Part shown: one piece after another, positions 669 through 38,583 of the stretch
Layout: every line of letters starts with the position of its first letter
How positions within the stretch are numbered: the first letter of the stretch is position 1
IMG/VR virus record: IMGVR_UViG_3300028591_000083
Coordinates: 32,001-96,000 of that record
Direction: 5' to 3' (one strand)
Origin: a virus
Taxonomy: Duplodnaviria; Caudoviricetes
Length of the DNA stretch: 64,000 nt
Program-made: the position numbers and the translations under genes
The notes under the pieces: generated by a model
Told to the model about the DNA's origin: nothing
Seen by the model: only the letters and a program-made list of their open reading frames with translations
Databases searched by the model: none

Positions 669-1484
669 TTAAAGTCCGAGTTCAGCAAGAGTTTTGTTTC
701 CGCCTTGTCTTTCAGGTGACTCTCCGTGTGTAATTTGTTCGATTTCAAAATCATCGAGGATTCGATGAACTCTAATCGCACCAGAGATGACCCAAGGAAC
801 AGTGTCAGGATTAGGGTTTGTTCTATACTTGTAATACCCATTTACAGGAAGTTTTGGAAGTCCAGCAAGTGAATGTTGATACTTGTCAGAGCGATATGTT
901 GATCCATCTGGGCGTGTTCTCATATACCCTTGTTCATCTGATTCAGCTTGATAATCAATATCCATAACATAATCACATTCTGCCCACACAAAGTCATAAG
1001 GAAAATATGGTGCATTATCATCTACAACTTGAACGCATTTACCAAGTTCATCAACATAGTATATATTACCTACATTAGATGCCTTTGCACAACTATTTAT
1101 AAATGTCTGCATTGTTCTTACAGACTTTACAGCTTCGTTTGGATCATCGTCTACAATTTTCCAACTGAAAGAACGATCAAACTGTTTTGCTATAGGATAT
1201 TCAGCACAATGCCAACCGGGACGATAGCTTAGGCTTCCTGAACCAGTTGACTTAACTTGTGGTCTACCTGTTTTCGATAATCCTGCAAATTCTCCTTCTT
1301 CTGCATCAAGCCAAACGCCTACAGGGGTATCAGCACCACCAGCGTTTGCAACCATCGGAGGATACAGCTTTCCATTCTTTACTCTAAATACTTTATATGC
1401 TTTACCCTTTACTGAATTTGAGTAATCTTTATCTGAAATCTTTTCATTCATCGGATTATTAGATTCTCTAATATATAGTTTCAT
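669..1484 (-). CDS. Tagged (MKLYIRE) protein with YKVF..YRPGWH..WAECDY domain
   Basis: 271 aa ORF, SD present, N-terminal tag shared with ~20 ORFs. Confidence 0.8.
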   Translation of the reverse strand: MKLYIRESNNPMNEKISDKDYSNSVKGKAYKVFRVKNGKLYPPMVANAGGADTPVGVWLDAEEGEFAGLSKTGRPQVKSTGSGSLSYRPGWHCAEYPIAKQFDRSFSWKIVDDDPNEAVKSVRTMQTFINSCAKASNVGNIYYVDELGKCVQVVDDNAPYFPYDFVWAECDYVMDIDYQAESDEQGYMRTRPDGSTYRSDKYQHSLAGLPKLPVNGYYKYRTNPNPDTVPWVISGAIRVHRILDDFEIEQITHGESPERQGGNKTLAELGL

Positions 1485-1506
1485 CTATTAAAACCTTCTT
1501 TCTATA

Positions 1507-1719
1507 TCAATCACCAGAACCGTCTGGAACAAAAACATCATCTAAAAACTGATCAATAGGCATTTTGCTTTTTGATTCTCCTGCTTTAGATAGAAGATTT
1601 AGTTCTCCTGGATTCTCTTTGTCGTGCTGTTCGCCGTATTTATTATACCAAACAACATTAACACCACAATTTTCACAAATAACATACGCTGTTTCTTTAC
1701 CACAATTTTTACAAATCAT
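1507..1719 (-). CDS. Small double-CxxC zinc-ribbon protein
   Basis: CKNC...CENC; in operon. Confidence 0.65.
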   Translation of the reverse strand: MICKNCGKETAYVICENCGVNVVWYNKYGEQHDKENPGELNLLSKAGESKSKMPIDQFLDDVFVPDGSGD

Positions 1720-1739
1720 GCCAAATCACATTCCTTATT

Positions 1740-2021
1740 TTAATCTTCCATTGACTTCTGCCATCTATCATTTCGCTCAGTAATGAAATAATAAAGTTCT
1801 TGTGCTACTTGTTTGATATCTCTCACTGAGTTTGCTTTCCTTGATTCTTTCCAACCTGAAATTTCTACAATCACATCCCAAAGTCTGTTCTGTGGCTTGC
1901 TGTAGTATGAACTGCAATAAGCATATCCAATTTCTTCATTTCCGATATAAATTGTGTATTGGTCAGGTTGTTCTTTTTGTAAACGAATAGACGACTGTGG
2001 ATTTTCAATAATTAGTTTCAT
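1740..2021 (-). CDS. Tagged (MKLIIE) hypothetical protein
   Basis: ORF with AGGTG SD and tag. Confidence 0.75.
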   Translation of the reverse strand: MKLIIENPQSSIRLQKEQPDQYTIYIGNEEIGYAYCSSYYSKPQNRLWDVIVEISGWKESRKANSVRDIKQVAQELYYFITERNDRWQKSMED

Positions 2022-2033
2022 TTATTATTCACC

Positions 2034-2573
2034 TCAATAGTAGAAATGAATTACAACACTTCCAACTGGTTTTGCTGTTGCAAGTTCTTGAATGTAGAAA
2101 TTGAAATCATAATCTTTTATAAAGCGGCGCAAATCTCTTTCCAGTGAATCTGCGTTTGCTTTGAAACCGGCAAATGCCTCAACAGCTATTGTTTCATCTC
2201 TTGTTTTACTCGGCTCATCAATAATAGTAAAACCATTATTTTTTGCAATCTTCTTAATCATGTCTTTGTTTGCTTCATAAAACTTTCTGATATCATCGTA
2301 GTAATCTTCATTTAGGCTTTTGCACTTTGTAGTTTTCTTGCTCTCATACAGCTCACCGAAATATTCCTGAATCCCTACAAGAGCACGATGAATTTCAAAA
2401 AATGCACGTACATCTTCATCATAAGGTCTTACACCATCAGCAATAGAAGTTGATAAAGATTCATATGCTCTTTCTGTTGCTTCTTTTGTATCAATCAACA
2501 TATTCTTAATATCTCTATAAGTTGCTTCGATTTCTGATTTATCAATATAGTCTTCTTTAATAATAAGTTTCAT
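2034..2573 (-). CDS. Tagged (MKLIIKE) two-module protein
   Basis: Likely start ATG 2573; internal linker LYESKKTTKCKSLNE. Confidence 0.75.
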   Translation of the reverse strand: MKLIIKEDYIDKSEIEATYRDIKNMLIDTKEATERAYESLSTSIADGVRPYDEDVRAFFEIHRALVGIQEYFGELYESKKTTKCKSLNEDYYDDIRKFYEANKDMIKKIAKNNGFTIIDEPSKTRDETIAVEAFAGFKANADSLERDLRRFIKDYDFNFYIQELATAKPVGSVVIHFYY

Positions 2574-2584
2574 TTTTACATTCC

Positions 2585-36681: not shown

Positions 36682-36728
36682 CGTTTTGAGTAGATAAATT
36701 TATAATTTTCGTATTGTAATTCAACACA

Positions 36729-37178
36729 TCACCAAACAGAAACGCCTAGTAATTCTGCGTCATCTTCAGTGATATCTCGCTCAGTTACAAGTTTAATCGG
36801 AATATAAACATCCACAATATATAGTTGAAGATCTCCATTTTCCCATTCTTTAATATCAGATGAATCTGCCTCTAGTCCATCTTCATCTCCTAAGAAATTA
36901 GTAACCAATCTATTATCAATAATTCCCCAGTCTTTAGGATCAGAAGGAGCATCAACTTGTACTTGCACTGTTTTAATAAAATCTTCTATTGAACTATATG
37001 TTCCACGAACATCAATATCCCACTCATTGACAAATTTACCCTGTCCAACACCATAGTGATCTTCATGCATAGTTACCCATCCTTTACCTGCTAAAATGCG
37101 TAACCTACCTTCCAAGCTCTCTTTAATATTTCTTCTGCGCATTTTACGATTAGATTCTTTCATATACTTCTTTACCAT
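36729..37178 (-). CDS. Double-tagged (MVKKYMKE-SNRKMRRRNIKE) protein
   Basis: GAAAGGA SD; tandem tags. Confidence 0.8.
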   Translation of the reverse strand: MVKKYMKESNRKMRRRNIKESLEGRLRILAGKGWVTMHEDHYGVGQGKFVNEWDIDVRGTYSSIEDFIKTVQVQVDAPSDPKDWGIIDNRLVTNFLGDEDGLEADSSDIKEWENGDLQLYIVDVYIPIKLVTERDITEDDAELLGVSVW

Positions 37179-37213
37179 GTTAAAACATCCTTTCTATTTT
37201 CAACAATAAAAAA

Positions 37214-37280
37214 ATTAAGTAGTGAGTACAAGCGGTCTTTCCTGTACTCACTACTTAATGTATTTTGGTGTTTTTTTTTG
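37214..37280 (-). promoter_or_regulatory. Leader element (A9 tract + 17-bp hairpin + U tract)
   Basis: Perfect stem attaagtagtgagtaca/tgtactcactacttaat. Confidence 0.6.
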
Positions 37281-37305
37281 TGATTTTGATTATATAATTC
37301 CTATA

Positions 37306-37899
37306 TTATCGCCAAATCTCATAGAGTTCTGTTTCAATATCAATCAGGCGGCTAACAATATCATCCATGTTATAATTATCCGGATATTTATTAACCATAT
37401 AAGAAATCTTATCAATATCTTCCTTTAGATGTTCACATACATCATTTACTGTTTCAATGGTATATGATTCATTCATTACACTCTTTACTGATATTGTTTT
37501 TCTTGTTCGGCTCTCAGTCTTTCCACTATAGTTACTTACAATCTGATTTACAATACCGCCAGTGCGCTCAAGTTCATTTGTGGCTCCTTCAAATGTAACA
37601 GTATCAATTCTATGATCTTCATATTCATTCTCAGAACGCCATTTTACTGTAATAAATGTATCGCGGTCTGGATAGTATGGATCATCACCGAAATCATACC
37701 AAAGAGCAACAAAACCAATAGTCTTACCGTTCTTTAGAAGATAAATTGTAGCATTTCCACAATCATCATAAATCTGACCTTCATGAGTTTCTGTTTCAAC
37801 ACCGTATTTCTTTGCAATGCGTCCTTGAACAGCATTCATCATTCTATAAAATGCTTTCTTGTTTTCGTTCGTGTCTGATTCTTTCATTAGCTTAATCAT
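37306..37899 (-). CDS. Tagged (MIKLMKE) two-module protein
   Basis: Internal KTESRTRKTISVKSVMNE junction. Confidence 0.8.
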   Translation of the reverse strand: MIKLMKESDTNENKKAFYRMMNAVQGRIAKKYGVETETHEGQIYDDCGNATIYLLKNGKTIGFVALWYDFGDDPYYPDRDTFITVKWRSENEYEDHRIDTVTFEGATNELERTGGIVNQIVSNYSGKTESRTRKTISVKSVMNESYTIETVNDVCEHLKEDIDKISYMVNKYPDNYNMDDIVSRLIDIETELYEIWR

Positions 37900-37986
37900 T
37901 GTATATCGCCCTTTCTTTTTTAATCATTGTTGAATTCAAAGTCATCTACTTCATAGATGCTGAACCGCTTAATTATATTATTGAAT

Positions 37987-38583
37987 TTATTTTTTCAAAT
38001 AATTCACATCTACCGGATATAATGTTATAGTTCTATGTGCTGCTGTTTTTATACAAATATCAATAGTATTTGCTGCTGAATAGTTTGTTGTCACATCACT
38101 AGAAAAAGATATCAACGACATATTTATTGTACCATTTGAATTTCTAAGACCACAACTATTGCAGAATTTAATTACAAAATCGCCCTCAAATAATTTTCTG
38201 ATATATCTCATAATAATAGAATAATCAAACAACGATGCAACCTCCTTCCGCGAATTATTTATTCTATGCGAAATTTCTTTCTCATAAGCACAATATTTAC
38301 TCCTATCATTAAAATCATAGAATACATTTTGTCTTGTGGATGTTTTATTTGAATTTTTACCTAAACAATGTTTGATATAGTGCTTATTCATATTTCCGCC
38401 TGACGTAAAATCTTCATTTAAGTCAGAACTATCTCTAATGATATCATTAAGAACAGCAAATATTTCTTCTGCAAATTCTTCGGCAATTTCATCATCATAT
38501 GAATCATATTCAGTGAAATCCATATCATCTTCAGGATCATAGAAATTATCATCTTCATAGATGTTTGACAATTTTTCTACCAC
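37987..38583 (-). CDS. Tagged (MVEKLSNIYE) protein with HYxKH putative ribonuclease-like module
   Basis: GTG 38583 after GAGGTG; DLNE junction; may extend to 37920 via a frameshift. Confidence 0.7.
   Translation of the reverse strand: MVEKLSNIYEDDNFYDPEDDMDFTEYDSYDDEIAEEFAEEIFAVLNDIIRDSSDLNEDFTSGGNMNKHYIKHCLGKNSNKTSTRQNVFYDFNDRSKYCAYEKEISHRINNSRKEVASLFDYSIIMRYIRKLFEGDFVIKFCNSCGLRNSNGTINMSLISFSSDVTTNYSAANTIDICIKTAAHRTITLYPVDVNYLKK

Follow-up and report, generated by a model that had tools for sequence, protein, structure and literature searches.

A 64,000-nucleotide stretch of a viral genome (Duplodnaviria; Caudoviricetes; positions 32,001 to 96,000 of the IMG/VR record IMGVR_UViG_3300028591_000083), hereafter called the window, encodes a large set of unrelated proteins which begin with the same kind of short peptide. 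This N-terminal tag consists of Met, one or two Lys or Arg residues, alternating hydrophobic residues and a final Glu. Sequence comparison strongly supports a link between the tag and a head protease of the type of gp21 of phage T4, as the tags, the sites in the capsid protein and the protease vary in concert from one related phage to the next. The shared N-terminus is probably a removable propeptide of the kind known from T4 as the capsid targeting sequence (CTS), with which about 25 unrelated proteins would be loaded into the capsid and clipped there by a protease of the S77 family.

The source contig is a single one of 207,349 bp with overlapping ends, and the window corresponds to its bases 32001-96000, genome positions being window positions plus 32000. 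The GC content is 33.6%, and nearly all genes lie on the minus strand. A custom gene caller, combining codon-usage log-odds, start choice weighted by the ribosome-binding site and greedy overlap resolution, called 336 genes covering 93% of the contig. All 18 N-termini that had been listed in the original prediction were found at their minus-strand starts in the window, nearly all of them behind a Shine-Dalgarno-like site. Three of these genes start with GTG (3511, 3885 and 38583). For the gene starting at 9850, the custom gene caller preferred an in-frame ATG three codons further upstream (9859, MITMKLRISE).

The tag was defined by a strict rule, i.e., Lys or Arg in residues 2-4, the first Glu at residue 4-10 and Leu, Ile or Met at P3 (the Glu being P1). 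In the genome, 36 of 312 N-termini follow this rule. Internal windows starting with Met gave an expectation of 5.5, and internal windows of any start one of 7.1; 12.1 +/- 3.4 were expected when the residues of each N-terminus were shuffled, and 14.8 +/- 3.6 when columns were permuted among genes, which preserves the position-specific composition. The motif had been expected to be commoner than in shuffled N-termini, and this was borne out for shuffled and internal controls alike, with 36 observed against 5-15 expected. Chance, composition or hidden paralogy (one ancestral gene, or common starts) is a barely credible source of the pattern. The motif is short and, depending on the control, 5-15 matches are expected by chance, but the highest count reached in 1000 column permutations was 28. 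The set of about 20 tagged proteins described earlier is real as a set, and its size is now put at about 25, the true members being estimated at 21-30.

Within the tags, P1 is Glu, P3 is Ile in 16, Leu in seven and Met in three, and P2 is Lys or Arg in half of the cases; the modal length is seven residues. The residue after the Glu, earlier noted as usually Ser, Asp or Ala, is Ser, Asp, Asn or Ala in 65% of the tags, compared with 29% after internal [LIM]-x-E. Synonymous codons are used freely for the same tag residues (CTA/CTT/CTG/TTA/TTG for Leu, AAA/AAG for Lys, ATT/ATC/ATA for Ile, GAA/GAG for Glu), which argues for selection at the level of the peptide and not on an RNA or DNA element. 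The complete divergence of the proteins past the tag was confirmed by BLASTP (1e-3, first 12 residues removed), in which no proteins of the tagged block were paired. This loss of all similarity once the tag is removed counts against paralogy and, together with the enrichment controls, excluded the explanation by chance, composition or common descent. The only family found in this comparison is a trio of paralogs outside the block, to the right of the window (genome 146223-146684, 153290-153757 and 153767-154216; 39-51% identical). The trio has tag-like starts (MVIRLFE, MIRLITE, MIRLLTE) and is distant from the head block.

The tagged genes are clustered. When the rule is relaxed slightly, tags are found on 26 of the 68 genes between genome 25 and 71 kb and on 18 of the 244 genes in the rest of the genome (odds ratio 7.8, p = 4e-9). 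The early cassettes to the right of window position 38.7 kb had been described as lacking the full tag, and the strict rule indeed gives one hit there (MNIKE, window 59942-61096), to which looser rules add a few weak matches. Outside the window, seven tagged genes are located at genome 25151-31343 and single ones at 97104, 115337 and 171460.

Downstream, with respect to transcription, the tagged block is followed immediately by the head genes, in the order terminase, portal, a 148-aa (amino acid) gene, protease-scaffold, capsid and tail sheath. An open reading frame (ORF) of 815 aa (genome 22463-24910), which carries an intein splicing domain (PF14890), was read as the large terminase from its position and its N-terminal similarity to relatives. 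The portal is of the T4 type (PF07230, E = 1e-47). A gp21-like protease was sought in the genome and was found, in the first ~170 residues of a 566-aa protein (genome 18163-19863), which match Peptidase_S77 (PF03420, the T4 gp21 family; 44.6 bits versus a cut-off of 27, and 47.4 bits in the genome-wide search) and phrog_207 (head maturation protease, E = 8e-44). The remainder is coiled coil, the 566-aa protein being a protease fused to a coiled-coil scaffold. No second S77 protease and no S78 (HK97-type) protease was found in the profile search of the genome. The protease aligns to the T4 gp21 chain 5JBL (E = 2.7e-6), and its His74 (GELDHPE) and Ser130 (GVSSRG) align with two Ala positions of 5JBL_A. 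The H85A/S140A variant of T4 gp21 is a catalytically dead mutant (PMC12991175), and 5JBL presumably is this double mutant. Fourteen relatives retain both of these catalytic residues. More than 900 GenBank phage records contain a relative; the nearest ones, from Streptococcus phage vB_SagM-GXN1, Bacillus phage SP-15 and Listeria phage LIS04, show the same protease-scaffold fusion.

T4 gp21 cuts after Glu in L/I-X-E and itself has an LIE-9 site near its N-terminus (PMC9026906). In the phage studied here, the capsid protein is of the gp23 type (PF07068), and the profile match starts at residue 77. Its first exon (285 aa) contains exactly four [LIM]-x-E sites, INE7/A, LME11/S, IAE31/S and LNE64/A (a slash marks the putative cut), and none after residue 64. 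The protease starts with MRVLIE/T, followed by a further site, LNE16/S, and the protease-scaffold protein has 16 [LIM]-x-E sites in all, most of them in the coiled-coil part. The capsid and the scaffold/protease, which were to be checked for the same x-E sites as the tags, thus both carry them, and the tags therefore share the form of the expected substrate sites of the protease.

The capsid gene is split, with exon 1 at genome 17241-18098 followed by a GIY-YIG-like ORF at 16508-17131. The capsid region (genome 13880-18098) also contains a further capsid-like ORF (15841-16245), a zinc-finger/endonuclease-I ORF (14019-14939) and two copies of a 32-aa segment starting MPADFRGQQGYATSYG (genome 13880-13978 and 15320-15418). 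An endonuclease inside the capsid gene was also seen in Bacillus phage SP-15 and several relatives.

Related phages were collected as neighbourhoods of family-1 genes in IMG/VR, family 1 being the protein encoded at window 669-1484; their capsid genes were located via their records, and the N-terminal regions were aligned. Each related phage has its own tag dialect, which is common to many adjacent genes. Some dialects end in Glu (E-type), e.g., MKLRINE and MKLRIKE in locus L023, MITVLNE, MIRVIIE and MLKVFIE in L027, MKLIYE and MKLNINE in L028, and MKFRLIE and MQFKLVE in L029. Others are non-E dialects, with MKRYIKS on nine genes in L024, MKRYI(K/R)(S/A) on about nine genes in L025, and MKRYIRA and similar starts in L038. 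MKIYIKSA tags were found on one ENA contig. The pooled E-type loci have 35 E-tags and no S/A-tags in 127 genes, versus three E-tags and 21 S/A-tags in the 78 genes of the pooled non-E loci (p = 4e-13). In phages of other types, which have just the family-1 domain in common, there are 0-1 tags per locus, and IMG/VR relatives found via the portal (34-39% identical) show no tagged block in the flanks. None of 297 genes of the genome analysed here carries an S/A-type tag. A chance origin of the tags is at odds with this absence, given how frequent such tags are in non-E relatives, and with the fact that different cargo families keep their tag across phages. The vicinity to head genes recurs as well: the tagged block adjoins terminase and portal here, a family-1 gene lies beside the protease and capsid genes in one relative, and four tagged genes are found directly upstream of the terminase in L029.

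The capsid sites follow the dialect of the tags. In the alignment column of MLNE/ATN of this phage, E-type phages have MTE/ATN, LLE/STD (GXN1), MFE/TTQ (SP-15) and AFE/ATN, and other E-type capsids have [LIM]-[NT]-E seven to eight residues upstream of that column. Three non-E phages have IMG/ATN, VTA/ATN and IMG/ATN in the same column. Their capsid propeptides (79-95 residues) contain no [LIMVF]-x-E and repeat ITAG, ITAS, VTAS and ITSS instead. In the non-E clade, the family-1 leader reads ..RPIMSG or ..RPITAG, a motif shared with the capsid site RRPITAG. The protease N-terminus, readable for two non-E phages (L026 and L038), is MLKSTIKA/T and MAKRKIKS/T. Moreover, the segment T-R-N-G-R (protease residues 39-43; RNKR in T4) is kept in all twelve of twelve E-type relatives, and in two non-E proteases it reads TNKNGL or VNNNDM, with both arginines (Arg40 and Arg43 in this phage) lost. 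The loss of two arginines would fit the loss of an acidic P1 residue.

These data also bear on a signal unrelated to the head, namely a degradation tag for ClpXP or another AAA+ protease, or a by-product of AT-rich, unstructured translation starts. A start of Met, a basic residue and three hydrophobic residues is similar to an N-terminal motif for ClpX. A ClpP homolog is present in the genome, the tag codons are AT-rich, and Lys at position 2 is common in low-GC genomes. Nevertheless, this explanation is very unlikely. It leaves the invariant Glu with its hydrophobic P3, the enrichment over controls of position-specific composition, the clustering by head genes and the concerted change in the tags, in the sites of the capsid propeptide and in the protease N-terminus unexplained, and the synonymous codon variation counts against a signal at the RNA level. 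ClpP is absent from five of five tagged relatives, four of which are complete, whereas S77 is present in all five. A tag for degradation by the phage ClpP was rejected on this absence and on the co-variation of the tags with the capsid sites. The ClpP-family homolog itself (genome 106351-106896, minus strand, 99 bits) is distant from the head module.

Taken further, the co-variation suggests that whole cargo sets have been re-tagged as the P1 preference of S77 went from Glu to small residues (Ala, Ser or Gly), the loss of the two arginines marking the change. The present clade of T4-headed phages of low-GC bacteria might then possess a programmable 'zip-code' system, in which at least 10% of the genes carry a minimal address-and-cut tag. 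This extension is tentative, and we would not yet bet on it. All characterised gp21-type proteases (T4, phiKZ, 201phi2-1, SPN3US) cut after Glu, to our knowledge. If the extension is true, a natural non-Glu branch of S77 with matching substrates would be new, its specificity determinants would be directly testable, and cargo genes would move between phages only after taking on the resident dialect.

A cultured phage with this feature exists. Streptococcus phage GXN1 has 6-8 stereotyped tags, e.g., MRLVRLTE/D and MRLVKLTE/S, mostly on small genes in the structural module. Its predicted tagged ORFs include PQ819873 132585-132827, 132841-133191, 134401-134706, 98803-99222, 9844-10257 and 144003-144329. 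No virion proteome has been reported for SP-15, and no description of this motif in this phage clade was found in a literature search.

The following course of events is proposed. The first tag residues, i.e., Met, Lys or Arg and the alternating hydrophobics, would dock the new protein onto the scaffold/protease core of the assembling prohead. The end of the tag (I/L/M-x-Glu, usually followed by Ser, Asp, Asn or Ala) would be the cutting site of the single S77 prohead protease. After closure of the shell, the protease would cut the capsid propeptide, the scaffold, itself and the tags. About 25 unrelated, mostly acidic proteins would be left free in the head and probably expelled with the DNA at the next infection. 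Capsid loading would follow from the protease link together with the T4 precedent, and delivery at infection is plausible by the same analogy. From the portable capsid-address tag that was originally proposed, the tie to head-protease recognition stands, through the cross-phage co-variation. Sufficiency of the tag for encapsidation, its removal in the prohead and delivery are extrapolated from the T4 precedent and from the homology of one cargo to predicted injected polyvalent proteins.

Several points weigh against this proposal. Cleavage, packaging and ejection are all predicted from sequence alone. Since the capsid proteins of the three non-E phages are close relatives, the co-variation may represent a single evolutionary switch, although one that touched dozens of genes at once. 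Some of the 36-44 matches to the regular expressions are due to chance because the tag is so short. The cargo is acidic (median isoelectric point (pI) 4.8), unlike the basic internal proteins of T4 (PMC9026906). The mature parts of the tagged proteins show no depletion of [LIM]-x-E (observed/expected 1.37 versus 1.06-1.19 in other proteins), a result that is neutral if the protease cuts only exposed sites. As for timing, the tagged genes are presumably expressed late. The T4-type late promoter TATAAATA shows no meaningful excess in intergenic DNA and is absent upstream of tagged genes. Many tagged genes share a GAAAGG-type ribosome-binding site with the genes for capsid, protease, sheath and endolysin (odds ratio 4.5, p = 0.001); this association is moderate, is not proof of late expression and is the sole hint on timing.

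The tagged genes in the window are as follows (window coordinates).
669..1484, minus strand: MKLYIRE/S, 271 aa, family 1; second site PMNE/K just before the conserved domain.
1740..2021, minus strand: MKLIIE/N, 93 aa; no PHROG family.
2034..2573, minus strand: MKLIIKE/D, 179 aa; no family match.
2585..3511, minus strand: MKLIFE/D, 308 aa, GTG start; weak PHROG match to a DNA-binding protein.
3526..3885, minus strand: 119 aa, GTG start, basic 16-residue leader ending in PIHE/D; no family match.
5271..5543, minus strand: MVRKLYIKE/A, 90 aa; found by the tag rule.
5556..5858, minus strand: MKLLYE/Y, 100 aa; the sole basic one, pI 9.7.
7180..7416, minus strand: MRLHIRE/K, 78 aa; found by the tag rule.
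8120..9850, minus strand: MKLRISE/S, 576 aa; BspA-type leucine-rich repeats, alternative start at 9859.
24967..26250, minus strand: MKLKLLNE/T, 427 aa; found by the tag rule.
28534..29073, minus strand: MKLFILE/D, 179 aa; very acidic, pI 4.05.
29783..30496, minus strand: MKLFIKE/S, 237 aa; second site ALNE/G at residue 12.
30513..31478, minus strand: MVKKLRIRE/S, 321 aa, family 2; homologs bear the precomputed label PF26096 (a label only).
35364..36158, minus strand: MVKKLNE/R, 264 aa; A-run, hairpin, T-run and GAAAGG ribosome-binding site upstream.
36308..36577, minus strand: MIRRLHE/D, 89 aa; same upstream cassette as at 36158 (A-run, hairpin, T-run, GAAAGG).
36729..37178, minus strand: MVKKYMKE/S, 149 aa; second site RNIKE/S at residue 20.
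37306..37899, minus strand: MIKLMKE/S, 197 aa; found by the tag rule.
37987..38583, minus strand: MVEKLSNIYE/D, 198 aa, GTG start; weaker match with the basic residue at position 4.

The tagged proteins were searched for known families, with Pfam and PHROGs on 20 proteins each and NCBIfam on three. Pfam families were found in two of the 20, a DUF3293/S-adenosylmethionine (SAM)-lyase-like protein (genome 26512-27105) and the BspA-type leucine-rich-repeat protein at window 8120-9850; a few tagged proteins match unnamed PHROGs. The former (MKLYIQE/N) matches DUF3293 with E = 4e-13 and the S-adenosylmethionine lyase family below threshold. If packaged, it would be a candidate anti-restriction cargo. 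The 21 strict members are mostly acidic (17 below pI 6), and their mature parts amount to 4,212 residues in total.

For two of the tagged proteins (families 1 and 2), homologs number in the hundreds; they lie on metagenomic contigs of 120-310 kb. The homologs mostly keep the tag pattern while its letters drift, e.g., MKLTISE, MRLHIKE, MIKLDINE, MVRKLKVKE and MSILKSINE. The starts of family-2 homologs include MVRKLKVKES, MKLKRIKES, MAVKKLTEG and MSILKSINEG. Family 1 is the most conserved cargo, with 370 homologs whose leader differs by phage dialect. Its alignment begins with a leader of 6-25 residues that varies among the homologs, and the [ILMV]-x-E at the end of this leader directly adjoins a domain of high conservation. 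The AlphaFold model (predicted local distance difference test (pLDDT) 63.5) shows the first 25 residues as disordered. The domain corresponds to phrog_30118 and has no model in the Pfam copy searched. A Foldseek search of the model against the PDB gave nothing below E = 0.1, tblastn against GenBank phages gave no match, and an atlas search gave a sub-threshold lead to Arr-type ADP-ribosyltransferases (0.81).

The family-1 domain also occurs inside ORFs of 3000-5600 aa in phages of 35-65 kb (L039:4544-17791, L043:6743-16801 and about 50 further IMG/VR loci). Two of these giant ORFs were examined; both have ART-PolyVal, and one also has PBECR5. On domain content, the giant ORFs are classed as polyvalent proteins, a group described as injected with the DNA at the earliest phase of infection (Iyer et al. 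2017, PMC5512222). Possibly, the family-1 domain is a polyvalent-protein domain that has yet to be described. Some close relatives have family 1 fused to another domain, and there a tag-like site falls exactly on the junction (RLITIKE/KIS, PIKLRINE/KIS, KNRIEE/KVS). Extra full tag-like junctions are not enriched within the tagged proteins of the present genome (0.40 versus 0.51 per 1000 aa), and the polyprotein idea is therefore supported in relatives only.

The nature of the cargo matters for another explanation, in which the tags are true prohead-protease sites and the proteins are accessory core or scaffold parts, space-fillers degraded or expelled at maturation, or proteins kept inactive by their propeptide until they are in the head. 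The protease link rests on the same evidence in both cases, and none of the results depends on ejection. Many scaffold proteins are acidic, as these proteins are, and several of the tagged proteins have a second site close to the first. Against this, the tagged proteins are of many sizes and mostly unrelated, and one with leucine-rich repeats and one resembling DUF3293/SAM lyase are unlike scaffold. Family 1 is elsewhere a module of predicted injected polyvalent proteins, and the mature parts show no excess of full tag-like sites. Overall, proteins with such a non-effector role are the less likely explanation, and loading of effector-like cargo is preferred.

The intergenic DNA around the tagged genes has features of its own. 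Three strong, near-identical sigma-70-type promoters (TTGACA, a 17-nt spacer with TG, TATACT, then ATATTTG) precede untagged genes at genome 28119, 45499 and 61645; the first promoter lies at genome ~28150-28250 and the other two at window 13500-13600 and 29650-29750. This arrangement suggests that the promoter-bearing untagged genes are early-transcribed inserts among the cargo genes. A repeated cassette consists of an A-run of 8-10, a long perfect hairpin, a T-run and then a GAAAGG-type ribosome-binding site.
Window 31480-31610, 35250-35360, 36160-36300, 36580-36720, 37180-37300 and 38585-38675: copies of the intergenic cassette, upstream of successive tagged genes.
The hairpin cassettes look like terminators of the bidirectional type, which would isolate each cargo gene as a unit of its own.

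Other genes are interspersed in the region. An IS605-family OrfB/TnpB (409 aa, with a Cas12f-like TNB domain) and a 214-aa upstream ORF are encoded at window 16493-18356 in a low-GC island (28%), on the plus strand and hence opposite to almost all phage genes. An RRXRR + HNH endonuclease (411 aa, window 26307-27542) lies between tagged genes, and a similar gene is present in a related 313-kb contig (L022:13367-14581). There are two BspA-type leucine-rich-repeat proteins, the tagged one at window 8120-9850 and an untagged one at 22242-24092; an LRR_5 protein is also found near the family-1 gene in the 313-kb relative.

The anaerobic ribonucleotide reductase NrdD (1289 aa, window 42900-46769) has an intein C-terminal splicing motif near residue 333-356, and the NrdG2 activase (window 7418-8113), inside the tagged block, sits 35 kb from it. 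As this activase is a radical-SAM protein, the tag could in principle be a leader by which a modifying enzyme, such as a radical-SAM maturase, recognises its substrates. However, the gene is an NrdG2 equivalog (206.8 bits versus a cut-off of 131) without a SPASM domain, and it partners the intein-bearing NrdD of the phage. No other candidate maturase was seen, and a leader of this kind does not predict co-variation with capsid propeptide sites. A radical-SAM/SPASM leader, the chance of which is negligible, was rejected since the sole radical-SAM gene of the block is NrdG2.

If the proposed loading of tagged proteins is true, roughly 25 proteins, nearly all without an assigned function, enter each new host before any gene expression. 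They would form a catalogue of candidate first-strike host-takeover or anti-defence factors from poorly studied large phages of low-GC bacteria. The sequence rule, i.e., an N-terminal tag which equals the capsid propeptide site, could predict virion cargo in uncultured T4-headed phages, and the dialect switch would be a natural experiment on substrate choice by gp21-type proteases. Since GXN1 is cultured and has the same feature on 6-8 genes, the prediction is testable at the bench. Furthermore, with its 5-10 residues, the tag could be a compact means of getting foreign proteins into such capsids, a use to which the T4 CTS has already been put. A reporter-fusion test for the T4 CTS carrying a foreign protein into the head was reportedly described by Mullaney and Black in 1996 (cited in PMC9026906).

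Known systems resemble this arrangement to different degrees. In phage P1, the Dar system, with DarA/Hdf-dependent loading of DarB, Ulx, DdrA and DdrB, likewise delivers several anti-restriction proteins from the head with the DNA (PMC9024508, PMC12810830). Unlike here, P1 loading proceeds by an ordered protein-protein assembly pathway and does not use a common cleavable N-terminal tag; no homology to P1 Dar proteins was detected. The polyvalent proteins of phages and conjugative elements (Iyer, Burroughs, Anand, de Souza and Aravind 2017) are similar in that the family-1 domain is a module of ORFs of 3000-5600 aa with ART-PolyVal and PBECR5. In contrast to them, the modules are separate genes here, with one tag each, and are not joined in one giant polypeptide, which would be a 'one tag per module' answer to the same task of delivery.

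In phiKZ, 201phi2-1 and SPN3US (proteases gp175/gp245), a diverged homolog of gp21 processes large numbers of head proteins at a three-residue motif, cutting behind its Glu (PMC5694885, PMC10052503), and the propeptides have multiple sites, as in the present phage. The phiKZ and SPN3US proteases cut after S/A-X-E and A-X-E (PMC9026906, PMC5694885), and the SPN3US paralogs gp53 and gp54 have a common 15-residue N-terminus containing ..KLARE/S.. (PMC5694885, PMC10052503). These phages differ in that P3 is Ser, Ala or Gly, most propeptides exceed 100 residues with no uniform portable tag, and many head proteins are unprocessed, whereas the tag described here is uniform, minimal and at the extreme N-terminus.

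The closest parallel is T4. From the N-termini of its virion proteins, propeptides are removed that range from 7 residues in Alt to 65 in gp23, and its internal proteins have capsid targeting sequences of 10-19 residues, of which ten suffice; targeting (residues 4 and 7) is separable from processing (residues 8 and 10) (PMC9026906). The internal proteins of T-even phages are diverse, and only the CTS is conserved (PMC3012670). As in the CTS of IPI, IPII, IPIII and Alt, which is processed by gp21, a short peptide at the extreme N-terminus of unrelated proteins ends in L/I-x-E. Likewise, the S77 protease lies among the portal, protease/scaffold and gp23-type capsid genes, the capsid propeptide has about 64-65 residues with several sites, the protease has an LIE near its N-terminus, and the seven residues of the Alt propeptide equal the modal tag length. 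Unlike in T4, there are about 25 tagged genes instead of about four, the tags have 5-10 residues instead of the 10-19 of the T4 internal proteins, the cargo is mostly acidic instead of basic, a single 566-aa protein combines protease and scaffold, the host is a low-GC anaerobe, and related phages use mutually exclusive dialects, some of them without Glu. Judged at the sequence level, the likeness to T4 is one of position, cleavage motif and protease family, and the membership features tested were all present. The concept of the T4 CTS is known already, and what is new is the scale, the shortness of the tag, the co-variation of the dialects and the cultured relative GXN1.

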